NCBI GenBank assembly: GCA_016178505.1 | Contig: JACOTG010000201.1 | Span: 2,413-66,412 of the forward strand | Length of the DNA: 64,000 nucleotides | Source of the DNA: Planctomycetota bacterium | GTDB lineage: Bacteria > Planctomycetota > JACOTG01 | Direction: 5' to 3' | Part shown: positions 118 to 19,135 of the stretch, in pieces | How the letters are laid out: each line of letters begins with the position of its first letter | How positions within the stretch are numbered: position 1 is the stretch's first letter | Position numbers and translations under genes: made by a program | Notes under the pieces: generated by a model | Seen by the model: only the letters and a program-made list of their open reading frames with translations | Databases searched by the model: none | What the model was told of the DNA's origin: nothing

Positions 118-1281
118 CTAGACATCGTGAAAAACCCGCTGCCTCCGACGAGACGTCGCCCTCGCGATCGCGAGGCCCGGGAGCAACACGACGATGCTTC
201 CCCAAAGCAGCGCTCGAATCCACGTCGGACGGTCGTCCGTTCGGCCGACGCTCCCCTCGGCAGCACCCGTGAATCCGCGCACCTCGGATTCCCAGAACTT
301 CATCCAGCCGGGCTCGAGCTTCGACAGCGTGATCCAATCGATGTCCTGCGGCTCGTAGTGAAGTGCGGCTTGCCAGGCCGGCAGCCGGTCGATCGGGATG
401 TCGCGGCGTGCGGGGATTCGAAAGTGCGCGTTCGCGAGACGCACGCTGGCGTCGATCGAGGTCGCGTACTCGTAGAACTGGCGCGCAAGGTCGGGCGAGG
501 GTCCACCCTTCACGACGGCGAGGCTGTCGGTGATCACGGGAACGTCGCGCTCCGGCACGACGGTCTCGAAGTGGTAGCCGTACCGCTCCCGCTGGAACAC
601 GATGTCCGTGAGATTCCAGACGGTGACCGTCGCTTCACCGCGCTCCATCATCTGATTGAGCAGCGTCGAGTCGGCAGCGTACCCCTTCGTGTTTCGCGCC
701 AGCTCGCGGAGCCAAACGGCCGCGCGCTCCGGTCGTGCCACGGGCCCATCGAGGCGCGCGACCGTCGCGGAAAAAAAGCTGCGCATCGTCCCCGACTCGA
801 TCGGATAGCGAATGACGATTTGGCCGCGGAACCGCGGATCGAGGAGTTCATCGAAAGTGCGGGGTGCATCTTCCGGACGAAGTCGCTCGGAGTTGTAGGC
901 GATGCAGATCGGAAGCGAAAACTGGCCGAACCAGAGATCGTGCGGGTCACGGGCGGCCTTCGGCACGGCATCGGCCCAGCTCGGTCGATAGGAATCGAGG
1001 AGTTTCTCCTCGGCGGCGCGGATGAAAAGGGTCGACGGCCCGCCCCACCAAAGGTCGGCCTGCGGGTTCCCGCGTTCCGCACGAATTCGGTCGAGGCAGG
1101 CCTGCGCACCGAGATCGAGCCAGCGAACGTCGACTCCCGGGTGGGCTTCCTCGAACCCACGTTCGAATTCCTCGAGGATGTCCTTGCCGTGCGGCGAGTA
1201 GATCGTGAGAGTGCGCGCGGGCGCCTCGCGTAGGAGGCTCGCGAAGAGGAATAGACTCGCCAGTGCCGGGAGATCGAGCAT
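118..1281 (-). CDS. ABC transporter periplasmic substrate-binding protein (SBP family 1, Fe3+/thiamine/polyamine type) with an unusual C-terminal TM helix and Arg-rich tail
   Basis: ORF 118..1518(-) trimmed to Met of MLDLPALASLFLFASLL (signal peptide). TLTIYSPHG...DLWWGGP pattern typical of FbpA/TbpA-like SBPs. The longer ORF N-terminus overlaps the neighbouring gene. C-terminus PTWIRALLWGSIVVLLPGLAIARATSRRRQR. Confidence 0.6.
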   Translation of the reverse strand: MLDLPALASLFLFASLLREAPARTLTIYSPHGKDILEEFERGFEEAHPGVDVRWLDLGAQACLDRIRAERGNPQADLWWGGPSTLFIRAAEEKLLDSYRPSWADAVPKAARDPHDLWFGQFSLPICIAYNSERLRPEDAPRTFDELLDPRFRGQIVIRYPIESGTMRSFFSATVARLDGPVARPERAAVWLRELARNTKGYAADSTLLNQMMERGEATVTVWNLTDIVFQRERYGYHFETVVPERDVPVITDSLAVVKGGPSPDLARQFYEYATSIDASVRLANAHFRIPARRDIPIDRLPAWQAALHYEPQDIDWITLSKLEPGWMKFWESEVRGFTGAAEGSVGRTDDRPTWIRALLWGSIVVLLPGLAIARATSRRRQRVFHDV

Positions 1282-1477
1282 CGCGGCCACTCTACCAGTC
1301 ACTTTGTCCCCGGCAAGCGCGCGCCGTCTCACGCTTCGTCGCCGCGGAAGGCTCTGATATGATCTCAAGCCCTTTTCGTCACGGGTCCGATAGCGAACCG
1401 TCGGCGGAAAGTGCGGCGGCCGTTGCGGGCGCGGAGGAGAGGACGGGGGACGCGCAGGAAACGAAAGGACCGTTTTT

Positions 1478-2788
1478 TTGAAGATCGGGATCCTCGGGGC
1501 CGGCGTGACCGGACTCATGACCGGTAATCTTCTCCGGGAGCGCGGCTACTCGGTTCAGCTCTTCGAGTCCGAGTCGAAGCCCGGCGGCCTTTGTCGTAGT
1601 TCCGTCGTCGACGGATTCGTCTTCGACTGGGCGGGCGGCCACATCCTCTACACGAAGGATCGCGAAGTCCACGATCACGTCACGCGCATCATCGGCGCCG
1701 ACCAAATCGTCGAGTCCGAACGGCAGACGAAGATCTTCTATCGCGGAAACTTCGTGAAGTACCCGTTCGAAAACGGACTCGCGGATCTGCCCAAGTCGGA
1801 CAACTTCGATTGTCTCGCCGGCTACATCGAGGCGGCGTTCGCACGACGCAACGGCGCCTCAGCGAAACCGTCGAACTTCAAGGACTGGGTGCTTTGGCGA
1901 TTCGGTCCAGGGATCGCGAAGCACTTCATGTTCCCGTACAACGAGAAGATCTGGAAGGCCGATCTCGCGTCGCTGAGCATCGATTGGGTCGACGGCCGTG
2001 TGCCCGATGCACCGATCGAGGACGTCATTCGATCTTCGATCGGGATTCCCACCGAGGGCTACACGCACCAGGCCCGATTCCGGTATCCCCGTCGCGGCGG
2101 GTTCGGAACGCTCACCGACAGACTCGCCGAGACGCTGGGCGAGGACGTTCGACTTTCAACGCCGGTCCTTCAAGTGCGCCGGCTTGGGAGCGAGTGGGAA
2201 GTCAACGGCGAGCGGTTCGACCGCGTGATCAATACGATTCCGCTACAAGAGCTATATCGTCGTCTCGAGGGCGCCGACCCGACGGCAAGAGCGGCGGCGG
2301 AAGGCCTTCAATTCCGCGGGCTGGTGTCCATTCTCATCGGAGTCGACGGACCGGAGCCAACTCGCCACTCCTGGATTTATCTGCCACACCCCGAGAACGG
2401 ACCAGCGAATCGGATCACTCATCTCGCCAACTACAGCCCAGAGAATGCGCCTCCGGGAAAGCACAGCCTTCTTGCCGAGGTCACGTACGAGGGCGACCTC
2501 CGCGTCGATCAACGTTTCGTCGACGACGTCGTCGACGGACTCCACAGAAGCGGCCTGGTCGACAAGAAGAAGGTCGTGACGACCGCATTTCACAAGAGTC
2601 ATTACGCTTACGTCCTGTTCACGCACGGCTTCCAGCGCAACCTCGACACGGCGACTCACTGGCTCGACTCGATCGGTCTCCACACGGCGGGGAGGTTCGG
2701 GCGGTACGAGTACTTGAACTCCGATCAATGCATGCGCCGGGCGATCGACCTCGTCGACAAGCACTTCCCACCCGTGAAATCGAACTGA
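1478..2788 (+). CDS. FAD-dependent oxidoreductase (amine oxidase / protoporphyrinogen oxidase / UDP-galactopyranose-mutase-like fold)
   Basis: N-terminal Rossmann motif IGILGAGVTGL...ESESKPGG. FPYNEKIW and GRFGRYEYLN motifs typical of this flavoenzyme family. TTG start as given by the ORF track. Confidence 0.6.
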   Translation: MKIGILGAGVTGLMTGNLLRERGYSVQLFESESKPGGLCRSSVVDGFVFDWAGGHILYTKDREVHDHVTRIIGADQIVESERQTKIFYRGNFVKYPFENGLADLPKSDNFDCLAGYIEAAFARRNGASAKPSNFKDWVLWRFGPGIAKHFMFPYNEKIWKADLASLSIDWVDGRVPDAPIEDVIRSSIGIPTEGYTHQARFRYPRRGGFGTLTDRLAETLGEDVRLSTPVLQVRRLGSEWEVNGERFDRVINTIPLQELYRRLEGADPTARAAAEGLQFRGLVSILIGVDGPEPTRHSWIYLPHPENGPANRITHLANYSPENAPPGKHSLLAEVTYEGDLRVDQRFVDDVVDGLHRSGLVDKKKVVTTAFHKSHYAYVLFTHGFQRNLDTATHWLDSIGLHTAGRFGRYEYLNSDQCMRRAIDLVDKHFPPVKSN

Positions 2789-3000
2789 CCTCCCGAGGAC
2801 TCCCGCGGACCGTCGCCTACGGTTACCCAACGAGCCGTGCGTCACGAGTCCGTGACTGCCCACGACGCGGTACACCTGCGATTCCCGCAGTTTCGACGCG
2901 GCACGCGCGGTGCGTCCCGCCCTTGCCGTCCCAGCGCCGGACGCAGGGGCGCGCGATCGACGTGATCGGAGGCGAACCGAGATCAGGGAGGTGACGAGCC

Positions 3001-4776
3001 ATGAACGCGATTCGATTGGCCACAATGATGTCGCTGTCCGTTCTCGGCGGGTTCTCGTCGGCACGCGCGCAGTGCCCTCCGATGCCGTCGAGGCCCGTGC
3101 CGCCGCCGTACGTCAAGCCGCTTCCCGCGAAGCCCAATGCCGGAGTGACGCCGAAGACCGAGGCCGGAGCCGCGCCCGCGCCGACGCCGGAGCCGACTTC
3201 GTGGTGGGGGCTTTGGGCGCGTGTCGGGGCACCATACGTCTTCGATCGGATCGCAGCCACGGAGCCAACGACGTCCGCCGCCGATTTCCTCCTTGGGCGA
3301 TCGGGCGGCCGATCGGCTCCTACGCGAGTGGCTCTCGTCCCCCGCGCAGCCGCCGACGCGTCAATCTCGGCGCTTCTCGACGCGCTCACGGATCCGAGCG
3401 CGGAGGTTCGCGCCGCGGCGGCAATCGCCGTTGGCCGCGCCGGTGATCCATTCGTGCGAGCTCGCCTCGAACGATCGCTCTCCGATTCGAACGACCGCGT
3501 ATGTGCATCGGCAACTCTGGGACTTGGCATGATGGGCGTGAACGACGAAGCCGACGCGCTCCGCCATCTCCTCGCTGACGACGTAGCTGGACGGCGACTC
3601 GCCAGACGGGAATCGGTTCCGACTGCCGCGAGGGCTTCCGCGGCGAGGGCTCTCGGGTTCCTCCGCGATGCGTCGAGCAGCGGTGCGTTGATCGCCGTCC
3701 TCACTGGCCGCGGGAGCGGCGCCCAGGACGACGTTGCACTCGCCGCGCTAGAAGCGCTGGGGTCGATCGATTCGGACGCGTCGACGTCCGCGCTCGTCGG
3801 CATCGCGTCGAGTGGCGGTCAAAGCGACGTGAGGCGTGCGTCTGCACTGGAATCGCTCGGGCGACGTGGAGCCCGCGCCGGTCTGCCATTGGCGATGCGT
3901 GCCTTGCGGGACGGAGGACGCGAGAGCGCGAGGTCTGCCGCTTTGGCGCTCGGTCGGCTTGTCTCGTCGGCCGATTCACGCGTGGTTGCCGAAATCGGGG
4001 TGCTCGCGGAGCGCCACGACCGTGACCCGATCACTCGCGGCATCGCTTGTTTGGCCCTCGGTGCGCTCGGAGGTCGCGACGCGCAGGAGATTCTCGGCCG
4101 AGTGATCCAACGCGACCGTTCCGACGCCGCGCAATTTTCAGCGATTGCGCTCGGGTTCCTCGCTCGAACCACGACGCCAACCGTGACGGCGATGGGCGAG
4201 ACGGCGACGTCGATCCTCCTCGCTTCGATGGCATCGGCAGACCAGCGCGGCGCTGATTTCCGCGCTGCCGTCGCACTGGCCCTTGGTCTCGCGCGGGCCC
4301 ACGATGCGGAAGAGGAACTCCATGTCATGCTGAACTCGCCGGGAGACAAGCTCGTCCGGGTTCGAGGCTCCGCGGCGATCGCGCTCGGCCTCCTCGGTTC
4401 TCACGTCGCTGTCCCCGACATTGCGGCGCTCACCAGGCGATGCGGGATCGAGCAACTGCCCCAGTGCGGCGTGGGGCTCGCACTCCTTTCGAGGCGTCAA
4501 TCTGCGGCCGAGATCGAAGCGCGGCTTTTTTCTGCTGAGACCGACGTCGAGCGCGTCGCGGCCGTCGCAACGCTGGGTTCGATCCGTTCACTGGACTCGG
4601 TCCCGGTTCTCGTTGCCGCCGCACGCGATCGATCCTCGTCCGAATCGCTTCGATCCGCCGCGATCTCGGCGCTAGGCCGCATCGTGGACGCGAGGACCAT
4701 CCCAATCGTGGTCTCGTCGAATTCCGTCGATTCGACCATGGAGCGCGCGGTATCCGATCTGCTTTCTCGACTCTGA
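3001..4776 (+). CDS. secreted HEAT/PBS-lyase-type repeat protein
   Basis: Signal peptide MNAIRLATMMSLSVLGGFSSARAQ. Repeated DP..VRAAAA.ALG..G motifs (HEAT-like). RBS gggagg 7 nt upstream of the ATG. Confidence 0.6.
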   Translation: MNAIRLATMMSLSVLGGFSSARAQCPPMPSRPVPPPYVKPLPAKPNAGVTPKTEAGAAPAPTPEPTSWWGLWARVGAPYVFDRIAATEPTTSAADFLLGRSGGRSAPTRVALVPRAAADASISALLDALTDPSAEVRAAAAIAVGRAGDPFVRARLERSLSDSNDRVCASATLGLGMMGVNDEADALRHLLADDVAGRRLARRESVPTAARASAARALGFLRDASSSGALIAVLTGRGSGAQDDVALAALEALGSIDSDASTSALVGIASSGGQSDVRRASALESLGRRGARAGLPLAMRALRDGGRESARSAALALGRLVSSADSRVVAEIGVLAERHDRDPITRGIACLALGALGGRDAQEILGRVIQRDRSDAAQFSAIALGFLARTTTPTVTAMGETATSILLASMASADQRGADFRAAVALALGLARAHDAEEELHVMLNSPGDKLVRVRGSAAIALGLLGSHVAVPDIAALTRRCGIEQLPQCGVGLALLSRRQSAAEIEARLFSAETDVERVAAVATLGSIRSLDSVPVLVAAARDRSSSESLRSAAISALGRIVDARTIPIVVSSNSVDSTMERAVSDLLSRL

Positions 4777-4925: not shown

Positions 4926-7900
4926 ATGATCGTCAACGGCCGGTATCGCGTCGCACGCGAGTTGGGGCACGGCTCGTATGCCAAGGTGTATCTGGCATCG
5001 GACAAAGAGCGACCCGGCGCGCACGTAGCTCTCAAGATCCTCGATCTCCCGGCGGACACCGCGGCGCCACGAACCGCCGACACGCGGGACGACGACGCGC
5101 GAACGGCATCACGCGACATCAAGAAGGAATTCCGTCTCCTCACACGCCTCCGCCATCCGAATCTGGAGGAGGTGTACGACTTCGGCGTGGACCGCGACAC
5201 CGGCCATCTCTTCTTCACTGCGGAATTCATCGAAGGGTCGGATTTCGTCACTGCAATCAGGACTGCCACGCCCGACGAGTTCGTGCGATTCGTCGTTCAG
5301 ATCCTCGAAGCTCTCGAGTTCATCCACGGTCGGGACGTCGTTCATGGCGATCTCAAGCCGGAAAACGTGCTTGTCTGTGCCGCGACGGACGACGGCTCCG
5401 TCGCACGGCAAGTCAAGCTCCTCGACTTCGGACTTGCGGGCGCGCGACGACGGCTTGCTTCGGGAGACGGCGGAGCACGTGGCACGCTCGGCTACGCGGC
5501 CCCGGAGGCTGTCATGGGCCGCGAGGTCGATGCACGCTCCGATCTCTACGCGCTCGGGATCCTCCTGTTTCAATCCATCACCGGCGCGTTACCGGCGACG
5601 AAGGCCGCACTCGGTTCGCGCGAGCATTGGAGCGAGATCGAGATGATCGTGCGCGAGAAGTCGACCCAGTTTCCCGAGCCGTTCGCGACGATGCTTCCGA
5701 GGCTCGTCGCCGAAGATCCCAACGCGCGTTGGACCTCTGCGCGCGAAGTTCTCGATCTCCTTCGTCGGGCGCAAGTCGGTTCCGTTCGTGATCCGGCGTC
5801 GTCTCGCATCCCTGCCGAAGTGCCGTTCGTCGGGCGTCGCGAGGAGCTCGCGATCCTCCGACGACTTCACGACGACGTTGCCGAACGGAAGCACGGCCCG
5901 CGAGTCGCGGTCGTCGTCGGCGAGCCGGGCTGCGGCAAGGGGCGACTTCTAGATGAGCTGAAGTACCACGGACAACTGCGCGAAGGGGACGTCGTGTCCG
6001 TGAACGCAGCTGGAGCCGGCGACTCGGCACTGGCCCTGATTCGCCAGATCGTGCGAAGGCTCTCCGAGTCACTCGACCCGTCGGATCTCGCAGCGCACGC
6101 CTCCCTTTTCGCGTCGCTCGGGCTTCGCGACGGGGAGGGTCGGGTCCTGACGCGACCGGTGTTGGGAGCGATGTTCGTTCGCTTTCTGTTGGCGCTCGCG
6201 GATCAACGGCCGCGCACGATCGTAGTGAAGAACGTCGGCGTCGCCGACGCAGCGAGTCGGGACTTGTTGGCTCACGCCGCGTGGCGGCTGTCAGTCGAAG
6301 GTGAGGCCGGTCGAGCGCCGTTGCTCCTCGTCTTCTCTCTCGATCCGGCGATCGCTACACCGGGATTCGAGGCGGACCTTCGCGCCGAGGGAAAAGCGGT
6401 AGAGATCCGCCTTTCGGGTTTCGACGTCACCGAAAGCCGTGCGTTTCTCCAGTCGTTTCTCGGGGGCGGCTCGGCAACGTCGGACCGAGCGGCGTTCGAG
6501 CGATTCGCCGACGAACTTCATGGCGAGTCGAAGGGAAACCCATTGTTCCTTCGTGACCTTCTGCGCTTCGTTGCGGACTCGGGGCGGCTCGCGTGGGACG
6601 CCGGGAACTGGCGGATCCAGCGGACGAAGGGTCGCGGACCGGCGCTTCCGCGTGCGGTATCGGCACTGCTCGAGGCGCGATATCGATCGCTCGACGCGCC
6701 GATGGCATCGGTGTTGGAGGCGTTGTCGGTGGCGAGGCGGCCCATTCATGCTTCGTTGATCGCGACATCGGTAGGCATTCTAGAGCCAGAGGCTCGAGCT
6801 CTCGTCGAGAAGCTTGTCGCGCTCGGAGTCGCTTCACGGGATCCCAAATCGGATCTGTTCTCGACAGGACACCCGCTCATGCAGGCGGTCGTCGAGCGCT
6901 CGCTGGCGGAAGAAAAACGCCAGGCGCTCCATGCTCGCCTCGGCGAAGCCATGTTGGCGACTTTGGGCGATCCGAATGGGCCGGGCGCAGGCGACGTTGC
7001 TCGGCATCTTCTCGCCAGCGCGACTCCGCGTCTGGGGATCAAAATCGCACTTCTCGCGGCGGACGAGGCATTGGAGCGTGGCGATCCGGGCGCGGCAGCC
7101 GACCTCTTTGCGCGCGTCGCCGAAATCGTTGAGTCGCCGGACGCGCGCCCGCCGAGAGGTAAGGGCGTCAATGGGACGCCGCCCGTCAGCGAGATTCACG
7201 TGCGCCACGGCACGGCGGCGTTGCGAGCTGGGCGATTCGAGGAAGCGGAATCTGCCGTTCGTGCCGCGATGCAGGGTGAACGCGACCCCGCGAGGCAAGC
7301 TGCGCTCACTCGCTCGCTCGGCGAAGCACGTCAGCGACGGGGAGATTTCGACGGTGCGCTCGCCGCGTACGAAGAAGCGCTTGCCATGGCGCGCAAGTCG
7401 GACGATCCAGCGACTGAGGCACTCGCACAGAACGCCGTCGGCTATTTGCACTCGCTTTGCGGACGGTACGAGCAGGCGCTTCGTGCGGCTCAGTCCGGGC
7501 TCGATCGACTTCGATCGGCGAGGACGCGCGAGCGCGCACTCTTGCTGAACTTGAAAGCCGTGTGTGAGCTTCGGCTCGGGCGCCACGAGGCGGCCATAGA
7601 ATCGGCGCGGGCAAGCCTATCGCTTTTCGAGGAGCTGTCGGACGAGTCGGGTCAGGCGTCGGCGCTCAACAACCTCGGCATCATCTACGACCGTCGTGGC
7701 GAGACGCCGCTCTCGCTGGAGGCGTATCGAAACGCCGCGCGCCTCTATGAGAAGGCCGGAAACGTCTCCGATCACGCGACGACGTTCAACAACATGGGAA
7801 CGGTTCTCCTTCTTCAGGGTGCGCTCGGTCCAGCTCGGGAACTCTTCGAGAAGAGCCTTGCGATGCGCGAAGAATTGGGAGATCGCTACGGCGTCGCCAC

Positions 7901-10401: not shown

Positions 10402-12444
10402 ATGCCAGACATGGATCGAAGAACATTCTGCTTCAGCATCATCACTGTTAGCATGACAGCGTGGGCGAGTCTGTGCCGGGCTGATCAACCCTTGACAGGA
10501 GATCTGAACTTCGATCGCGTCATCGATGTGTCCGATTTCAGTCTGCTATATGGTTACATCCAGGGAAACAATGGGTTAAGTACGGATCAGCTCGCTGTCG
10601 CCGACATCAATCACGACGGTGTCGTGGATCTGATGGATGTCCGACGCGGGATGACTCGGTATGGCCGCCGTGTTCACTTCGAAGTTCCGCCGTTCGACCC
10701 GTTCGATCCAGCACGTCCAGTTCTCGACAAAGTCATGCCCGGATTCGGGCCAACCCGAACCCTGGTGACCCTGATCGGGTCCGGATTCGACCCGGTCGCA
10801 GCGAACAACGTGGTCCGGTTGGCGGGCGACGTCATGACCGTATTGTCCGCGTCGGCCACAGCGCTCACATTTCGAGTGCCATCGACTGCGCGGACCGGGA
10901 GCATCACGGTCGAGATCGGTGGGCTCGAAAGCTGCGGGGTCCCGTTCCTCGTGGGCGACGCGCCACCGACGACGAACCCCAACTCGGCGACGATCGGAAG
11001 CGAGGACGTCGGCCTCGTCCTTCCCAGCATTGCGGTTGCGCCGGGCTCTCGAATCGAGATTCCGGTGGAGTTCGATTCCGGCAATCATGATTTGGTCGGC
11101 GTCGATTTTCGCATCACGTTCGATCCGACCGTCCTCCATGCCGTCGAGATGGAGCCACTGCCAACGGTTCGGTTCGGCCAGCACTTCTATCGTTGCATCG
11201 ACAACACGACGGGCGTGATCGCGGGAGCGTTCGGATTCGGCCGGACGCCCGGTCGTGCCGTCCAGGTCGCAAATCTGGTGTTCGACGTCGTCGGGACGCC
11301 GGGTCGAATCGGGACCGTCGGCGGTCGCTTGAATGCCATGGCAGACATGGCGCAGCCAACGACTCTTGCCAGCGGTCCGAGATTCCTTTCGTCGAGTCAG
11401 AGCTTCGTTCTGGTTTCGGACGGGACTTTTTCGGAATCGTTGCGCCTTCTCAGCGAGGCAAGGGTTCACGCGACAGCCAACGCCTTGCCGGATGGACGCG
11501 TCCTCATCGCGGGAGGGGACTCGACGAATGGACAGATCCTCTCGAGCGCGACGATATTCGATCCATCGACGGGCGTCGTCACTCCTCATCCCACGGGAAT
11601 GGCCACCTCACGAACCGGTCATTCGGCGACGACGCTCAGCGACGGGCGGATCGTGATCGCGGGTGGCCGCAGCGTCAACGGACCGTTGTCGTCGATCGAG
11701 ATTTTCGAGCCGAGTTCGAACTCGTTCAGAACGGTTTCGCGACAGCTCTCGTCGGCCCGTTCGGATCATGCGGCGGTCCTCATGGCCGACGGGCGAATCG
11801 CTTGGATTGGCGGGCGGGGCGCGTCTGGCGTTCTTGCGAGCGTCGAGGTGTTCGACCCTGCGCTCGAAACGGTTACACGTCTTTCGCTGCCGATGAACGT
11901 TGCTCGATCCGGCCCGTCGGTCGCGCTCCTCTCGACGGGCAACCTCATCGTCACGGGGGGCGTCGGAACGGACGGGCAAGGGGTCCGTTTGGAGTTGACC
12001 GAGATCTACGATCCGATCGGTCTCTCGACGACTTACATCAACGAGAGTTCGGGTCATCGAGTCGGTGCTTTGCATCGGGCGACGCGCCTTCCGTCGGGGA
12101 CGGTAGTGCTCAGCGGAGAAGGTGAAGCCTCACGGTTCGACGTTTCGGATGGCGAATACGAATCGCTGGCAGTGCTCCGCGACTCACGCACCGGACACGT
12201 TGCGGTGCCGCTTCCCGATGGCGCTCTGTTCGTGAGCGCGGGATACGGAGTTGGAGTCCCGGTGCTCCGTACGAGTGAAATCCTCGGCCGAACCTCGGCT
12301 ACGGTCACGTCGCAAGGACCGTTGCTGTTCACCGCGCGAGCGGAGGCGACGGGAGTCGCGTTTCCGGATGGTCGCGTGGTCGTCGTCGGAGGCCTCGATT
12401 GGAACGGGAATCCGATCGCTTCGGTCGAGGTCATGCGACCCTAG
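10402..12444 (+). CDS. secreted protein with N-terminal dockerin-type Ca-binding repeats, an IPT/TIG domain and a Kelch-type beta-propeller
   Basis: Signal peptide. Dockerin-like DLNFDRVIDVSDFSLL...ADINHDGVVDLMDV. IPT-like PVLDKVMPGFGPTRTLVTLIGSGF. Six or more Kelch-like blades (DGRVLIAGG, DGRIVIAGG, DGRIAWIGG, GNLIVTGG, DGRVVVVGG). Confidence 0.7.
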   Translation: MPDMDRRTFCFSIITVSMTAWASLCRADQPLTGDLNFDRVIDVSDFSLLYGYIQGNNGLSTDQLAVADINHDGVVDLMDVRRGMTRYGRRVHFEVPPFDPFDPARPVLDKVMPGFGPTRTLVTLIGSGFDPVAANNVVRLAGDVMTVLSASATALTFRVPSTARTGSITVEIGGLESCGVPFLVGDAPPTTNPNSATIGSEDVGLVLPSIAVAPGSRIEIPVEFDSGNHDLVGVDFRITFDPTVLHAVEMEPLPTVRFGQHFYRCIDNTTGVIAGAFGFGRTPGRAVQVANLVFDVVGTPGRIGTVGGRLNAMADMAQPTTLASGPRFLSSSQSFVLVSDGTFSESLRLLSEARVHATANALPDGRVLIAGGDSTNGQILSSATIFDPSTGVVTPHPTGMATSRTGHSATTLSDGRIVIAGGRSVNGPLSSIEIFEPSSNSFRTVSRQLSSARSDHAAVLMADGRIAWIGGRGASGVLASVEVFDPALETVTRLSLPMNVARSGPSVALLSTGNLIVTGGVGTDGQGVRLELTEIYDPIGLSTTYINESSGHRVGALHRATRLPSGTVVLSGEGEASRFDVSDGEYESLAVLRDSRTGHVAVPLPDGALFVSAGYGVGVPVLRTSEILGRTSATVTSQGPLLFTARAEATGVAFPDGRVVVVGGLDWNGNPIASVEVMRP

Positions 12445-12682: not shown

Positions 12683-12729
12683 CTGTCGCATTTATTATCG
12701 TCACGCAGGGCAACGTGGAGGCGACTGCC

Positions 12730-13413
12730 ATGAGAATCCGCCGAGGAAACCCGGGTTTCACCATGGTCGAGCTGCTCGTCGTGATTGCGGTGATCGCGAC
12801 GATTTCGTCGATCATCTTGCCGAGTCTGCTCGGCGCACGGATGAGCGCCGCTGAGAGCGCGGCGATGGCGACCCTTCGCACCATCTGTTCAGCGGAGACG
12901 AGCTTCCACGAACGCCAGAGCGCCGACCGCGACGCTGATGGCGAGGGCGAGTACGGATTCCTCGCGGAAATGGCGGGCACCGTGATTCCGCCCCGGGCCG
13001 TGCAAGTCGTCAACCCGCCGATGCTCCCGAACTCCTTCCGCGTGATGAGCTCCGGGTACGTGAGCCGAACGGGCTATCTGTTCCGAGTGGTCCTCCCGGG
13101 CCTCGGCGGCGTTCCCGCCACCGAGGCGGCGACGGGAGGCGAGGACGCGGCGGCGCCGGTCGATTCGAACTTGGCCGAGGCGATCTGGGTCGCCTACTGC
13201 TGGCCGTCCGTCCGCGGCACGACGGGATTCCGAGCGTTCATGGTGAACCAGAGCGGTGCGATCATGCAGACCGACAACGTCGTCCAGGGCTACACCGGGT
13301 ACACGACGCCGATCACACCCGACGCCGCGTTTACGTCGCCGAACAACATCGCGTCGCCGGTCGCATTCAACGCTGCGGGCAACGACGGAGGAATCTGGAA
13401 GCCGGTGCGCTAG
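12730..13413 (+). CDS. prepilin-type N-terminal cleavage/methylation domain protein (type II secretion pseudopilin / type IV pilin-like)
   Basis: MRIRRGNPGFTMVELLVVIAVIATISSIILPSL is the classic prepilin peptidase motif (G|FT.E) followed by a hydrophobic helix. Start moved to the ATG with RBS (ORF track starts at GTG 12715). Confidence 0.65.
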   Translation: MRIRRGNPGFTMVELLVVIAVIATISSIILPSLLGARMSAAESAAMATLRTICSAETSFHERQSADRDADGEGEYGFLAEMAGTVIPPRAVQVVNPPMLPNSFRVMSSGYVSRTGYLFRVVLPGLGGVPATEAATGGEDAAAPVDSNLAEAIWVAYCWPSVRGTTGFRAFMVNQSGAIMQTDNVVQGYTGYTTPITPDAAFTSPNNIASPVAFNAAGNDGGIWKPVR

Positions 13414-13442: not shown

Positions 13443-13473
13443 ATGCCGAGGTGAACCGCACCTCGGCATTTTT
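13443..13473 (+). terminator. rho-independent terminator after the prepilin-type gene
   Basis: atgccgaggtg / cacctcggcat 11-bp stem with aaccg loop, followed by tttt. Confidence 0.6.
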
Positions 13474-13474
13474 C

Positions 13475-14488
13475 GTGGCCGGAGTCGACGACCTCGTCGA
13501 TGTCATCGTGCGCGCAACGGTGCGCCACGAGTTCACGACCTACCTCATCGGCAGTCGGCTCCCGTCCTCGCTGGAGCCCGGAGCGGCGCGTGAGACCAAG
13601 CGGTTGCTCCACGCGGACATCTCGAGTGCGCTCGATCGGAAGTGGTTCGGACGACGAGTCGATTTCGACGATCCCGAAATTCGAATCCTCGTCGACGTCA
13701 CCCACCGAGAGGCGACGGTTTGGTCAGCGCCGGCGTGGCTGGTTGGTCGCTATCGGAAGTTCGACCGAGAGCTCCCGCAGAGTCGCTGGCCTTGCCGCCG
13801 TTGCCGCGGCTCCGGATGCGAGCGTTGCCTCGGCACCGGCAAGACCTACGTCGAGAGCGTCGAGGAAGCGATCGGCGGTACGGCGCTCCTGGCGTGCGAA
13901 GGTGTGGCGACTCGATTCCACGCCGTCGGCCGCGAGGACGTCGACGCTCGGATGCTGGGGACCGGCCGGCCGTTCGTCCTCGAGATCGTGGAGCCGCTGC
14001 GTCGAGCTGCGGATCTCGACCCCATCCAGCGAGTCGTGACCGAAACGTGGGCGGGGCGAGTCGGCGTCAGCGGACTTCGTTGGGGAAGCGCTCACGACGC
14101 CGAAGCCGTCAAGGCTCGGGAATGCGAGAAGAGCTATCGGGTCGTGATTGCCGCGCCGCGTCCGCTGTGTTCCGAGGATGCGGCTCGCATCGCGGATTTG
14201 ACGTCGGCCGAGCTGAAGCAGGAGACTCCGAATCGGGTTCTTCATCGACGGGGCGACGTGCGTCGACGACGACGAGTCTTTCGAGCGGAAGCACGTTCGA
14301 TCCGCGGAGGTCTCATCGAGGCGCGCTTCCGGGTCCAATCGGGAACCTACGTCAAGGAGCTGGTCTCGGGGGACTCGGGCCGAACGACCCCGAGTGTCTC
14401 GGCGCTTCTCGGCACGGCGTGCCGGGTTCTCTTACTCGACGTCGTCGCCGTTCACGATGACATCACCGCGCTCCCCCACGACTCATGA
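13475..14488 (+). CDS. tRNA pseudouridine synthase Pus10 family (archaeal/eukaryotic-type psi54/psi55 synthase) homologue; start uncertain
   Basis: Zn ribbon CRRCRGSGCERCLGTG. Signature AVGREDVDARMLGTGRPFVLEI (catalytic Asp region of Pus10) and YVKELVSGDSGRTTPSVSALLG. The ORF track N-terminus (from 13256) overlaps the pilin gene and terminator. The first in-frame GTG after the terminator is 13475; 13508 and 13520 are alternatives. Confidence 0.55.
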   Translation: MAGVDDLVDVIVRATVRHEFTTYLIGSRLPSSLEPGAARETKRLLHADISSALDRKWFGRRVDFDDPEIRILVDVTHREATVWSAPAWLVGRYRKFDRELPQSRWPCRRCRGSGCERCLGTGKTYVESVEEAIGGTALLACEGVATRFHAVGREDVDARMLGTGRPFVLEIVEPLRRAADLDPIQRVVTETWAGRVGVSGLRWGSAHDAEAVKARECEKSYRVVIAAPRPLCSEDAARIADLTSAELKQETPNRVLHRRGDVRRRRRVFRAEARSIRGGLIEARFRVQSGTYVKELVSGDSGRTTPSVSALLGTACRVLLLDVVAVHDDITALPHDS

Positions 14489-15033
14489 GCTGGTTTGGCT
14501 TTTTCCTCAACCTCGCTCTCGTCGCAGGGCTTGCGTTCGGCGTCTACTCTTGGTGGAAGTGGCGCCAAGCGGTCCGCGCGCGGCGATTTCGCCTCGATCC
14601 CGTGTCGTCGCCTCCCGGCCCGTGGGTTCGTGCGACGCGATGGTTGTTCGAGTCACTCATCGTGCTCGAAGTCCTGTTGGCGATCGCACACCTTGGCGGC
14701 GGCGTGAGCTCGTTCGCCGACGTCGTTTCCGGCGGAGCGACGAATCGCTTGCTCGTGGCGGTCGACCTCGTTTTCTTCGTTTTTCTGCTGCGATCGGACG
14801 TCGTGTCGAGCGCGGCTCTCTTGTGCGACGACGCGATCCGGATGGGGTGGGGCATTGCTGCGCGTTACGGCGAGGTGGAATCGGTCGAGTGGCTCGGCGC
14901 GGACCTTCTCGTCGTGCGGACGCATTCGGCACGCCTCGCTTTCTCGGTGCGCGAACGCGAGCGCGAGTCGGTTGCCCGATTCATCGGTGAGAAAACCGGA
15001 AAGGTCGTGGCCGTTCGGTCAGATCGCTCCTGA
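14485..15033 (+). CDS. hypothetical membrane protein (4 predicted TM helices), start overlaps the Pus10 stop (ATGA)
   Basis: ORF with hydrophobic segments LNLALVAGLAFGVYSWW, LIVLEVLLAIAHLGG, LLVAVDLVFFVFLL. ATGA overlap suggests co-translation with the upstream gene. Confidence 0.4.
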   Translation: MSWFGFFLNLALVAGLAFGVYSWWKWRQAVRARRFRLDPVSSPPGPWVRATRWLFESLIVLEVLLAIAHLGGGVSSFADVVSGGATNRLLVAVDLVFFVFLLRSDVVSSAALLCDDAIRMGWGIAARYGEVESVEWLGADLLVVRTHSARLAFSVRERERESVARFIGEKTGKVVAVRSDRS

Positions 15034-15541
15034 ACCGGGCGTTCTCGGGCGGGCGAACAGGACGAACACCGCCCATAACACGACCGGGAAGAACAGAATG
15101 CCCATCGTGCTGAAAAACGTGTGAAGGAAACGATAGATCGCCGCCGTTCCGGGAGCGATTGGGGCGAGTCCGAGCGCCGCGTAGTTGAATTGAAGCTCGA
15201 AAAAAACGGCGAGCACTTGAGTGAGCAGTAGCAGGGGAAACGCCAGCGCCGCGCGTACCGATGCGGAGAGAAGTGGTAGGTCGGTAGCCCCGAGAAAGAG
15301 CGCCAAGAACGTCGTCACGTCGAAATGTCCGGCCGTTCCCTTGAACGGAATCACCGACTCGCCGCCGCCCGCGGCGCGAAGGACGATCTGGATCCTGTCG
15401 CCGCGGACTCCGATGCTCTCGAGAAGTCCCTGTGGGTCGATCGGGGGGAGAACGAGGTTCGATGCGCTAGCGAGGAGCCAGTCCAGCAACGGCGAGGCCA
15501 ACCACCACACTCCAAACGCGACGGCGTACGCGAACGCGAAC
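15019..15541 (-). CDS. hypothetical polytopic membrane protein downstream of the exosortase-like gene (start undefined, possibly GTG/TTG or a frameshifted continuation)
   Basis: Hydrophobic, codon-plausible reading FAFAYAVAFGVWWLASPLL...ILFFPVVLWAVFVLFA. No ATG until near the C-terminus. The N-terminal Arg-rich part of the 275-aa ORF overlaps gene 15542..16090 in another frame and is rejected. Confidence 0.3.
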
Positions 15542-16090
15542 CTAGCGAGCCTCCGCCGCCAGGTCGCCGGTCGGGGGACGGAACGTCGTTCGGGCCCAGA
15601 GGGCCCAGACTCCGAAGACGAATGCGATGAAGAACGTTTGCCAGACATACACGTGTATGAACTCGAACGCGGAACTCTCGCGACTCGCCAGGTAGAATAG
15701 CGTGACGACCCGCACCAAGTTGAGCAGGAATATCGCCGGCAAGCCCACCAGGAGACCCAAGCCGCGAGAACGCCACGATGCCGGAAACGCGACGATGGCA
15801 GCAACGAACAGGATCCACTCGTACGTGACGTCGCATCCGTGCGCAATGGTGATCGCCGAGCCGCTCGAGGGAACCAGCGTCAATCCGTTTCGAACGACGG
15901 CTTCGCCGAGGACCTCGAGCACACAGGCCGCACTGGCAGCGGTCGCGCTCATGAACGGCTCGACGACCGCATCCTCGAGCGCGGGAACGAAGAGGAGCGC
16001 GAAGAGCACGATGACGATTCCGCCGAAGCGCAAGCAGAAGCGAAGTGGCGCGGAGCGCGTCCCAATCCGCCCGGATTCGGTCGAAGGCAT
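15542..16090 (-). CDS. putative minimal exosortase/archaeosortase-family membrane protein
   Basis: 5 TM helices. ITIAHGCDVTYEWILF (Cys in a TM helix, cf. the exosortase ACSG motif) followed about 45 aa later by FLLNLVRVVTLF (N-x-x-R motif, conserved Arg). Resemblance judged by eye only. Confidence 0.35.
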   Translation of the reverse strand: MPSTESGRIGTRSAPLRFCLRFGGIVIVLFALLFVPALEDAVVEPFMSATAASAACVLEVLGEAVVRNGLTLVPSSGSAITIAHGCDVTYEWILFVAAIVAFPASWRSRGLGLLVGLPAIFLLNLVRVVTLFYLASRESSAFEFIHVYVWQTFFIAFVFGVWALWARTTFRPPTGDLAAEAR

Positions 16091-16146
16091 GGGCGCAAGC
16101 TAGCGGTGCCGGATTCCAGCGTCAAGGCAAGCCGCGGCGAGATCGC

Positions 16147-17718
16147 GTGACGCGTCGCGTCCGGATCGTCGTCGTCCTTGCGTGCGTCGTGGTCTCTGGT
16201 GGAGTCCTGCGGCACTTCGATCAACACCCGATCGATCTCACGCGCTTTGCGCCCGCCGACGCGAGCGTCGCCCCACACGAGCCACCGCGCGGCATTGCGG
16301 GTGGAGCGCTCCTCGTCGTTTCACCTGAGGTCGTGGCACGCGCGTCGGGCGCGGACGCGAGCTTCGCGTGGCTCGACATCCTGGAGAACGAGTACGGCGC
16401 CACACGTTGGATTCGTGCGGACGAATTGTCCCGCGACGCCGGCGCCGTGACCCTGGCCGTCGTGTCGCGAAGTGCAGCGTCGGACATCGACGCCCGCGCG
16501 CTCGATCGGCTCGCGACACGCGCACTCGTGATCGTCATCGACGTCGACGGATCGGACGCAGCGCGCCCAGCGCATGCCGGGTCCGCGCCGATCATCGCCG
16601 TCGACGACCTGGCAAACCGCGTCGCGCGTCGCCGCCAGGGTCTCCTCGGATCGCGACAGACGATCGACAAGAGACTGGGGCGCTACCCGCAGGTGCGAGA
16701 ACCCGAGGACCTCCTCGAATCGCCAGATTCGCTCGACCGAGAGTTTCCCGACGCCGACCGACTCGTCGCCGACCTCGCCGCTCGAATCGACACGCTCGTG
16801 GCGATTCCGCGCCTAGCGATGCACCCGGCAGGATTCGCGGGAACGTTTCTGATGACGCACGACGAGGACGAACAAGGCGGCGCTTCGACTCTTTCTCTCC
16901 TGCGACGAGAAGCCGAGTGGGGCGGCCGTTCGACGGTGTTCCTCGTTCCGTCGGGCCGACTCTGGGAGTCCTGGTCCGATGCCGAGATCGCCGAGGCCAG
17001 ACGGCTCGGCGCGGATCTCGAGCTCCATTGGAATCGCTTCGCGATGCCCGCGGGCGTGTGGAAGGTCGAGCCGTACAAGACCGTGTACCGCCTCTCGACG
17101 CAGCGCGAGACGTTGCGCCGGCGCGGGCTCGAAGCCACGATGAACCGCACGCACTACCTCCACCTCGGATCGGATCTCTCGGAGTTCTTTCGCACGCTCG
17201 ACGCGGCCGGCATCGAAGTGGACGCGACCTTCGGTCCGAATCGCGCCGGGCGTGGCCACCTGTTCGGAACGGCGCGGCCATTCCATCCGATCGATCGGAC
17301 CGGCCTGCCGTCGCCCGTGATGGAGGTTCCGTTCCAGACGCAGGAAGATTGGGGCGGCGTCGACGAAGCGTTCTTGGCTCGGCTCTTTCGTCAGAGCGCC
17401 GACGTGGATCACTAGACTCTCGCGGCGATCATTCACCCCCACCTCATCGTGCGCGACGATGCCGGCGCCCGCCTTCACCGGCGTCTCTTCGAGCTCGCGC
17501 GCGAGACGCAGCATTGGGTCGCAAACCTCGGGGACTATCTTGCGTTTCGCCGCGCGCGACTCGCGACCGTCATCCGGTTCACCCGTGCGCCGGACGGTCG
17601 CGTTGTCGCTCTCGACGTCGACGTTCCGGATGGCGTGCCACCGATGGCTCTTCGGGTTCCGAAACGCGCGCCTCTGACGCTGCTCGCCGGCCCGCACCAC
17701 GTAACGCTCGAGGACTGA
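16147..17718 (+). pseudogene. membrane-anchored polysaccharide-deacetylase-like / hypothetical protein interrupted by a single in-frame TAG at 17413-17415 (pseudogene, split gene or sequencing error)
   Basis: ORFs 16045..17415 and 17449..17718 are in the same frame with no other stop between them. Sequence continuity across the stop (...SADVDH*TLAAIIHPHLIVRDDAGARLHRRLFELARE...). N-terminal TM anchor VRIVVVLACVVVSGGVL. Likely start GTG ~16147. Confidence 0.4.
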
Positions 17719-17770
17719 TCTCGCCGCGAGTCGATCGAGTGCGAAACGAGTGGGCGAGAGCCGAACGGCT

Positions 17771-19135
17771 TCAGGAAGCGCGACGGAAGAGGAACGCCGT
17801 GTAGAGGGCGATCATTGCTGCCAGCGCCGCGATCCCGAGGGGGCCGATCGCGGAAACCTCCATCGGCGGCGGCGGGGGTGCGGCGAACCGCTGAGCGAAG
17901 ATCCCGTCGGATTCACCGTCGGCGCCGCTTCGATCCTCGAATGCGATGACGGCCTCGCCGGAGTCCGCGACCGCCACCGATGGCGCTGCCTGGTCCAGGT
18001 TCACCGTCGAGTTGACGCGAAACGCGGGACCCATCGCCGCTCCGCTGGCGGCGAAACACCGCGCAAAGATTCCCGAGCCGCTTCCGTCGCGACCGCTCGT
18101 CTCGATCCACGCAACCGTGACGCGGCCCTCGTCGTCGATTCCGACGGGAGACGGAAATTGGTTGCCCGAGACGACGTCGTTCGCGCGCACCTGGCCCGTG
18201 GTCGGTTGACCGAAGCGATCGAACGCGCGGAAGTAGACGCCGGCGCCGTCGCCGTCGAGGCCCGACCAGTCCGTCCATGCAACGACGAACCGGCCGTCTC
18301 GCGTCATCGCGACGTAGGGGTCCTTTTGATCGCCGGCGACGACGACAGGCGCGGCGACATCGCCCGTCCGAGGCGTGCCACCCGCGCCGAACAATCGAAA
18401 GAAGACGCCATGCCCCGAGCCGTCGGCCGCACCACGATCCATCCACGCGATGACGCAGCGCCCGTCCGCGGCCATCGCGATCGCCGGCCCCACCTGGTTG
18501 CTCTGGGTTCGAACGTTGACGAGAACTTGCGGGCCGCGCGGCGTGCCATCGGCCAAGAAGAAACGCGCCCAGACGTCCGGCGTCCCCCCATTCGTGGAGT
18601 CGACCCACGCGATGGCAAAGTTACCGGCGGAATCCATTGCCGCCTGCGGCTGGAACTGGGAGCCGGCGACGATCGACGGCACCACGAACTCGGGACCCGC
18701 GCGTACGCCGTCGCTCGTGTACCGTTGTGCGATCACGCCGAGCGCGTCGCCATCTCGGCCGTTGTAATCGGTCCATGCGACGACGAAGTCACCGGAGTCG
18801 TCGATTGCGACTGTGGGTTCGTTCTGTGTCCCGGCCGTGGTCGCATTGGCCACGTGCTCGCCCGTGATCGGGGCTCCGTCCGCGCCGTATGCGCGCACGG
18901 AAACATTGAGTCCGGTCCCGTTCGACCACGTGACGACGAATTGCCCGATTCGGTTCATCGCGACCTCGGGCTGATTCTGCGCCCCTCGAGTCGTCTCGTT
19001 GACGCGAAATTCGCCGCCCTCAGTGCCTCCCCCCGCCGCGTATGCGACGCGTGACGCCAACGCCAACGCGAGCACGAGCCATTCGATGGACCAGCCACGG
19101 CCCGCACGGTGAGACGGCTCAGGAGCGTGATTCAA
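17771..19135 (-). CDS. secreted seven-repeat (beta-propeller-like) protein with C-terminal PEP-CTERM-like sorting signal
   Basis: Signal peptide. Seven ~48-aa repeats centred on FVVAWTD / G.DGDG.GV. C-terminus PPPPPMEVSAIGPLGIAALAAMIALYTAFLFRRAS (Pro-rich / PME motif, TM helix, basic end). Confidence 0.5.
   Translation of the reverse strand: MNHAPEPSHRAGRGWSIEWLVLALALASRVAYAAGGGTEGGEFRVNETTRGAQNQPEVAMNRIGQFVVTWSNGTGLNVSVRAYGADGAPITGEHVANATTAGTQNEPTVAIDDSGDFVVAWTDYNGRDGDALGVIAQRYTSDGVRAGPEFVVPSIVAGSQFQPQAAMDSAGNFAIAWVDSTNGGTPDVWARFFLADGTPRGPQVLVNVRTQSNQVGPAIAMAADGRCVIAWMDRGAADGSGHGVFFRLFGAGGTPRTGDVAAPVVVAGDQKDPYVAMTRDGRFVVAWTDWSGLDGDGAGVYFRAFDRFGQPTTGQVRANDVVSGNQFPSPVGIDDEGRVTVAWIETSGRDGSGSGIFARCFAASGAAMGPAFRVNSTVNLDQAAPSVAVADSGEAVIAFEDRSGADGESDGIFAQRFAAPPPPPMEVSAIGPLGIAALAAMIALYTAFLFRRAS

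Follow-up and report, generated by a model that had tools for sequence, protein, structure and literature searches.

The locus described here lies at positions 15019-19135 of a 64,000-nucleotide stretch of DNA from a Planctomycetota bacterium (GenBank assembly GCA_016178505.1, contig JACOTG010000201.1, positions 2,413 to 66,412; hereafter the window). It contains xrtH, the gene of an exosortase H, together with genes for a polytopic membrane protein, a protein of the CE4 deacetylase fold and a secreted repeat protein with a C-terminal sorting-signal layout. An earlier reading of the bare letters, the original prediction, described a miniature exosortase together with a variant PEP-CTERM substrate. 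Judged from the family models and alignments below, the locus was correctly sensed but misclassified, and we assign it as XrtH with an IPTL-type signal and not as a miniature EpsH with PEP-CTERM. The following features were recognized (aa, amino acids; TM, transmembrane).

Positions 15019-15648, minus strand: divergent XrtH-associated polytopic membrane protein (the partner), assigned with a profile of proteins encoded downstream of xrtH.
Positions 15542-16090, minus strand: xrtH, exosortase H, 182 aa, full length, assigned by its TIGR04177 match, conserved residues and NCBI name.
Positions 16147-17718, plus strand: protein of the CE4 fold (polysaccharide deacetylase-like) with a membrane anchor, 523 aa long according to the public record, assigned by predicted fold.
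Positions 17413-17415, plus strand: in-frame TAG cutting the CE4-fold protein to 422 aa, from comparison of the window with the public record.
Positions 17771-19135, minus strand: secreted protein of seven repeats, 454 aa counted from TTG 19135, candidate XrtH substrate by its repeats, signal peptide and tail.
Positions 17774-17833, minus strand: TM helix IAALAAMIALYTAFLF and then the basic C-terminus RRAS, read from the sequence, with the layout of the IPTL-CTERM tails of loci L084 and L065.
Positions 17834-17857, minus strand: sorting-signal signature motif V-S-A-I-G-P-L-G, placed by tail alignment.
Positions 19037-19135, minus strand: predicted N-terminal signal peptide LNHAPEPSHRAGRGWSIEWLVLALALASRVAYA, with A as the next residue, read by eye from the sequence.
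Positions 5784, 9066, 9644, 9751, 13474, 13521, 13581, 14931, 17414, 18368 and 22286: differences between the window and contig JACQFJ010000083.1, from their alignment.

The protein encoded at 15542-16090 scored 120.4 bits (E=6.8e-35) on the exosortase H model TIGR04177, for which the curated cutoff is 86, and its residues 16-168 aligned to model positions 1-154 of 158. The original prediction had proposed a search with exosortase-family hidden Markov models (HMMs) as its check; when run, this search also returned TIGR04178 at 46.2 bits (cutoff 23) and PF09721 at 37.7 bits, with the protein under the cutoff on all other exosortase/archaeosortase subfamily models. It is a polytopic membrane protein containing the segments AHGCD and NLVR, and the putative active-site residues Cys86, Asn124-x-x-Arg127 and His146 are invariant across 14 aligned homologues. 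An identical protein already carries the name 'exosortase H' at NCBI, and relatives are labelled 'exosortase H (IPTLxxWG-CTERM-specific)' by JGI; the best match among GTDB species representatives was only 43% identical. We assign 15542-16090 as a complete, not truncated, exosortase H. The exosortase-like membrane protein had thus been recognized correctly, while its description as 'mini', being only 182 aa, did not hold: the model was covered almost from end to end above its curated cutoff, and the size is no ground for doubt since this is the usual length of XrtH. No second exosortase-like open reading frame (ORF) was found among all ORFs of the 64-kb window.

The ORF at 15019-15541, suspected at the outset of being a frameshifted continuation of the exosortase, was assigned to a distinct gene by comparison with 80 XrtH loci from GTDB species representatives, mostly Acidobacteriota/Thermoanaerobaculia with two Planctomycetota. 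About 70 of these 80 encode a membrane protein of about 190-200 aa directly after xrtH, often with a short overlap. A profile of 70 such proteins, all from other genomes, scored 29.5 bits on the window ORF (E=2e-5 at a database size of 1e6) and 35.2 bits on its longer form, the sole match among all window ORFs. The window protein reached 7.1 bits on NF041730 ('exosortase H-associated membrane protein', cutoff 35) in an alignment spanning the whole model, and the Acidobacteriota xrtH-downstream proteins reached 17.9-26.6 bits. Gene callers start the partner at GTG 15510 or TTG 15501 (163 or 160 aa), which cuts the first TM helix. Both this helix and the profile alignment begin upstream of these codons, where the sole canonical start is ATG 15648; from this candidate start the protein has 209 aa and its gene overlaps xrtH by 107 nt. 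An orthologue, 53% identical, follows xrtH in L092/L094, and the window position corresponding to the partner start of L092 has no canonical start codon. On these alignments, the ORF is a separate gene and probably a divergent homologue of the membrane protein that accompanies xrtH.

The repeat-protein gene lies one gene away from xrtH, not two as had been stated. The description of its product as a 454-aa secreted protein with seven repeats stood: seven units of 51-56 aa extend from residue 40 to about residue 420 and are followed by a Pro-rich linker and the tail, the C-terminal end being PPPPPMEVSAIGPLGIAALAAMIALYTAFLFRRAS. The public gene call is 395 aa long and starts within repeat 1. By eye, the N-terminus of the longer form is signal-peptide-like, as are the corresponding N-termini of the orthologues P0016, P0023 and P0024. 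The protein matched NF053835 PDIAV_lipo at 30.7 bits and is presumed to be a 7-bladed beta-propeller. More than 1348 homologues of the PDIAV-like repeat module were found, and there is no Pfam family for this module. It is joined to at least five C-terminal export or anchoring modules, namely type IX secretion (T9SS), dockerin, SLH and RTX modules in other phyla and the IPTL-like tail. Because other phyla carry T9SS, SLH, dockerin and RTX modules at this place, the C-terminus is evidently an exchangeable site for lineage-specific export or anchoring signals.

The sorting-signal layout of the tail had been seen correctly: the motif is followed by a 16-residue hydrophobic segment and by RRAS at the extreme C-terminus. 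The same order of short motif, TM helix and basic cluster (RR or KK) closes all of the nearest homologues, which are about 450 aa long. In orthologues the motif directly before the TM helix is conserved as [IV]-P-A-[IL]-G-P-x-[GA], the individual forms among homologues being IPAIGPLG (P0016, 65% identical), IPALGPTA (L004/L006), VPAAGTAA (P0017), VPSLDPLG and VPATGPSA, and its position is kept across homologues that are 43-65% identical. The VSAIGPLG of the window aligns with I-P-A-I-G-P-L-G, with I-P-A-L-G-P-T-A and with the canonical I-P-T-x-S-x-W-G, and is alone in the tail set in having Ser where Pro is conserved. A profile built from nine tails, the window's own left out, gave the window tail 18.4 bits (E=4e-5) as the sole significant match among 576 ORF C-termini of the window, the runner-up reaching 6.0 bits. 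IPTL-CTERM is, going by the NCBIfam and JGI names, the signal class for which XrtH is named. On its model IPTL_CTERM (TIGR04174, cutoff 20.5), orthologue and homologue tails scored 21.4 (P0060, above the cutoff), 18.2, 15.6 (P0016), 13.9 and 12.1 bits. The 18.2 bits belong to the L004/L006 tail SIPALGPTALGLLAMLVALLASRLLRRSA, which also gave the highest score of the tails on NF033207 midcut_by_XrtH, matching the IPTL-like segment of that model at 27.7 bits; the XrtH of L004/L006 is 77% identical to that of the window. From these alignments we classify the window tail as a degenerate exosortase H (IPTL-type) sorting signal and not as a PEP-CTERM variant.

A PhnS-like periplasmic substrate-binding protein (SBP; 118-1518, minus strand) also ends in a TM helix and RRRQR. 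This ending, pointed out originally, is present, but the signal is not shared: the SBP tail scored -0.8 bits on the nine-tail profile and matched no sorting-domain model, which ruled it out as a second substrate of this signal class.

The CE4-fold gene lies on the opposite strand between xrtH and the repeat-protein gene, divergent from xrtH across a 56-bp spacer, and its 523-aa product has an N-terminal TM helix. This protein and 44 family members had no match in Pfam or NCBIfam, PF01522 included; a phmmer search of the PDB with the protein gave no match, and the family profile reached CE4 entries among the PDB sequences only at E of about 1-2. The protein falls in an unannotated family of 441 clusters. 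For P0135, a homologue of 521 aa and 87% identity, AlphaFold with a 44-sequence alignment gave a model with a mean local confidence (pLDDT) of 95.2 and a global score (pTM) of 0.93; an earlier run with a 5-sequence alignment (pLDDT 48) was unusable. The predicted structure contains the NodB-type deformed (beta/alpha) barrel that marks CE4; its nearest known counterparts are CE4 (NodB-type) deacetylases such as 3rxz, 1z7a, HP0310 (3qbu), ArnD (8t0j) and the PelA deacetylase domain (9cgy). It differs from these by carrying a further alpha/beta domain at the N-terminus and a beta-sandwich at the C-terminus, and the family differs in its lack of a PF01522 sequence match and in that the second metal-binding His of H-x-x-x-H is not evident. 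T235, H236 and D237 are near-invariant in the family and HWNR is invariant in the 5-sequence alignment; the candidate catalytic segments were assigned by eye. On the model, the gene between xrtH and the repeat protein has a CE4 deacetylase fold, an assignment at the level of the fold with putative catalysis. The original label 'polysaccharide-deacetylase-like' is accordingly right for the fold, given the confidence of the AlphaFold model, and right for the position of the gene, but no sequence HMM detects the family.

At 17413-17415 the window reads TAG where JACQFJ010000083.1 and two Logan assemblies read TCG (Ser), and the truncation removes a conserved ...IIHPHL... segment together with the C-terminal beta-sandwich. 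Since the 422-aa NCBI protein HYR85_18770 is the TAG allele and one Logan contig stops exactly at the site, the difference is consistent with a real polymorphism and looks like a nonsense polymorphism within the population. The window corresponds, in reverse complement, to part of JACQFJ010000083.1, a 107-kb contig from a Planctomycetota MAG (GCA_016200105.1). The two differ by 11 substitutions in 20.5 kb and NCBI proteins with HYR85_ locus tags match the window alleles; the two therefore appear to be sister assemblies of the same population.

In the two other Planctomycetota loci, L084 (Pirellulales; tail IPTVSGWG, 22.6 bits) and L065 (Phycisphaeraceae; tail IPTTSEWG, 25.2 bits), a canonical IPTL-CTERM protein is encoded immediately upstream of xrtH. 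As both have the same cassette, a substrate gene adjoining xrtH recurs in Planctomycetota. In these cassettes (L084 7583-9994 and L065 16-5255) one substrate has 361 aa, and the other has more than 1234 aa and is a repeat protein rich in Cys. Here xrtH is followed by a membrane protein of ~230 aa that gave no match to NF041730 or to the Acidobacteriota partner profile; it may represent a second partner family. Three lineages have both the repeat protein and xrtH: the two genes adjoin each other in L001 and L004/6 and lie on separate contigs of the MAG GCA_973473515.1. Pairwise ratios of non-synonymous to synonymous substitution (dN/dS) were 0.19-0.38 for xrtH, partner, CE4-fold gene and repeat protein, and 0.23-0.44 for the 182-aa gene that flanks them and served as control; dS was near saturation in both cases. 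The values of 0.19-0.38 point to long-term constraint and purifying selection on the four module genes.

Compared with the XrtH (TIGR04177) system at large, the window enzyme shares the short architecture of ~160-180 aa with the Cys, N-x-x-R and His kept, the score above the curated cutoff and a candidate membrane partner encoded downstream. As in the XrtH/IPTL-CTERM system, a secreted protein with motif, TM helix and basic tail is encoded nearby, its orthologues scoring 12-21 bits on the IPTL-CTERM model. Differences are found in the tail itself, which reads V-S-A-I-G-P-L-G and not I-P-T-L-x-x-W-G and is not detected by TIGR04174, in the surroundings of the active site (AHGCDVTYEW in the window clade, GCNG(V/I)E in other XrtH), in the partner, which lies far under the NF041730 cutoff, and in the divergent pairing of the CE4-fold gene with xrtH, which was seen only in the window clade.

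Among the genes that surround the locus, the stable neighbours of the repeat protein belong to envelope-glycan metabolism, namely CDP-alcohol-phosphatidyltransferase-like, MATE/Wzx-like flippase, HAD hydrolase, sulfatase-family, epimerase and radical-SAM genes. Scans of the locus region for promoters, terminators and Rfam families found nothing. At 13451-14488 (plus strand) a bacterial Pus10-like pseudouridine synthase is encoded (PF21238 Pus10_C, 206.7 bits) with a THUMP-like N-terminus; Pus10 is usually regarded as archaeal and eukaryotic. It is followed at 14485-15033 (plus strand) by a conserved 182-aa protein with N-terminal TM helices and no family match, which is always convergent to the xrtH/partner pair and persists in L093, where xrtH is gone. 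The synteny block of pilin, Pus10, 182-aa protein and xrtH is kept in four related lineages. The gene of a secreted Kelch beta-propeller protein of 677 aa, which matched dockerin and cohesin weakly (10402-12444, plus strand), adjoins a type IV pilin-like gene at 12715-13413, and both are conserved in relatives. In L093 a CE4-fold gene adjoining the repeat protein (2309-3738) is split by a frameshift, as seen from two tblastn segments in different frames; since xrtH and the partner are also missing there, it is suggested that the module decays as a unit.

Two other readings of the enzyme and its signal can be set aside with some assurance. It is extremely improbable that the xrtH gene and 15019-15541 form one larger exosortase broken by a frameshift or an assembly error: the ORFs do abut or overlap on one strand, and both encode polytopic membrane proteins, yet the 182-aa protein spans the XrtH model by itself, at least 70 other genomes show the same pair of genes, the sequence is identical in three independent assemblies, and the xrtH of L004 stands alone and stops at the same place. 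A frameshifted or truncated exosortase was ruled out on the model coverage, the two-gene genomes and the identical assemblies. Hardly less improbable is the reading of the original prediction, in which a non-canonical PEP-CTERM signal, with P-M-E for P-E-P, is processed by a miniature EpsH-type exosortase in an exopolysaccharide locus. The PEP-CTERM/exosortase A system (EpsH, XrtA; PMC1569441) belongs to the same superfamily (PF09721, TIGR04178) and likewise has a tripartite C-terminal signal and polysaccharide genes nearby; this layout, common to all exosortase signals, the Pro-rich stretch before the tail and the glycan-biosynthesis genes near the locus speak for such a reading. However, the PEP-CTERM model TIGR02595 gave no match to the window tail at E<=10, and the close orthologue tails (L004/L006, P0016, P0017) had no PEP-CTERM match. 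The P-M-E position lies in a non-conserved linker where orthologues read PSP, PAS or AAA, although the [IV]PA[IL]GP that follows is kept; on these two grounds the PEP-CTERM reading was dropped. The enzyme, too, is above the XrtH cutoff, its EpsH match being to the generic Pfam domain only (positions 106-252 of 254); it is of the short XrtH type, whereas XrtA has ~8 TM helices and 280-500 aa, and one candidate substrate is visible in the window as against dozens.

We consider it fairly probable that the locus is an XrtH protein-sorting module composed of XrtH, its partner, the CE4-fold neighbour and the repeat protein, whose IPTL-type signal makes it the candidate substrate. Several observations weigh against this. 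TIGR04174 did not match the window tail even at E<=10, nor did an in-silico Ser-to-Pro revertant give an IPTL match, and of I-P-T-L-x-x-W-G the window tail keeps only two hydrophobic positions and the final Gly, with Pro, Thr and Trp gone. No IPTL-type tail was found within 10 kb at any of the 78 XrtH loci from outside the Planctomycetota (Acidobacteriota/Thermoanaerobaculia), so that adjacency of substrate and xrtH is not the rule. L004/5/6 has the repeat protein, the CE4-fold gene and xrtH with the partner gene absent; in GCA_973473515.1, xrtH, partner and CE4-fold gene are on one contig and the repeat protein, with an IPAIGPLG tail, on another; and L093 keeps the repeat protein without xrtH and without the partner. 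The literature searched contained no biochemical study of XrtH or IPTL-CTERM. Alternatively, the tail may do no more than anchor the protein permanently in the membrane, or may be a decayed signal that is no longer cut, with the real XrtH substrates elsewhere in the genome and the adjacency a historical remnant or a coincidence. The missing IPTL_CTERM match with Ser at the conserved Pro, the retention of repeat protein and tail in L093 without xrtH, the unlinked genes of GCA_973473515.1, the lack of substrates beside xrtH in most XrtH genomes and the signs of erosion (the TAG in the CE4-fold gene and the missing canonical start at the L092 partner-start position) would all agree with this alternative. 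We nevertheless hold this explanation to be rather unlikely, as the orthologue tails score as IPTL-CTERM-like and as no other sorting class, the motif keeps its position among the diverged homologues, the nine-tail profile finds the window tail, a cassette of substrate, xrtH and membrane protein is present in two other Planctomycetota, and both xrtH and the repeat protein are under long-term purifying selection.

For the sorting-module reading, we infer the steps beyond the sequence assignments by homology with archaeosortase A. The archaeosortase A/PGF-CTERM system of Haloferax volcanii (PMC6098224) works with an enzyme that is homologous to XrtH and shares its conserved residues. It is the only experimentally characterized model: C-terminal cleavage of a Sec substrate, with a covalent lipid on the S-layer glycoprotein, and the need for the conserved residues are experimentally established (PMC6098224). 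It differs from XrtH in the domain of life, the PGF motif and the acceptor lipid. By this analogy XrtH may be inferred to cleave the tail of the repeat protein. The latter would be exported by Sec via its N-terminal signal peptide and would stay in the cytoplasmic membrane through the helix at its C-terminus, its RR facing the cytoplasm. The membrane-embedded Cys of XrtH would then cut at or near [IV]-[PS]-A-[IL]-G-P, on the outer face of the cytoplasmic membrane, and the protein would be released or, as with archaeosortase A, passed to an envelope acceptor. Envelope-glycan genes and a CE4-fold enzyme nearby suggest a cell-surface glycoconjugate layer as its destination. An IPTL-CTERM protein was localized to the S-layer of Methylomirabilis in the only paper found that mentions one (PMC8671808). 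Because the Pro of the motif is Ser and the CE4-fold gene has a nonsense codon, the module may be partly impaired in this strain.

A more specific proposal, which we regard as improbable, is that XrtH was re-specified in this Planctomycetota clade to a new signal, [IV]-P-A-[IL]-G-P-x-G, and serves a single dedicated substrate, the propeller protein, and that the CE4-fold partner, which is conserved and divergent from xrtH, makes the acceptor. The partner would de-N-acetylate an envelope glycan whose free amine attacks the XrtH acyl-enzyme, so that the protein becomes covalently joined to the polysaccharide. If true, it would be the first time that a concrete acceptor chemistry is proposed for a bacterial exosortase.

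Exosortases are widespread and, to our knowledge, the chemistry from substrate to product is known for almost none of them. The enzyme was already correctly named in the public annotation and, beyond the compact pair, the finding is routine. It does indicate that substrates of annotated exosortases can stay 'hypothetical proteins' because the curated sorting-signal HMMs miss diverged tails. The main value of the locus lies in a compact pair of one enzyme and one candidate substrate with a CE4-fold neighbour: the pair offers the simplest arrangement in which cleavage could be tested, and the neighbour points to a testable idea about the acceptor.

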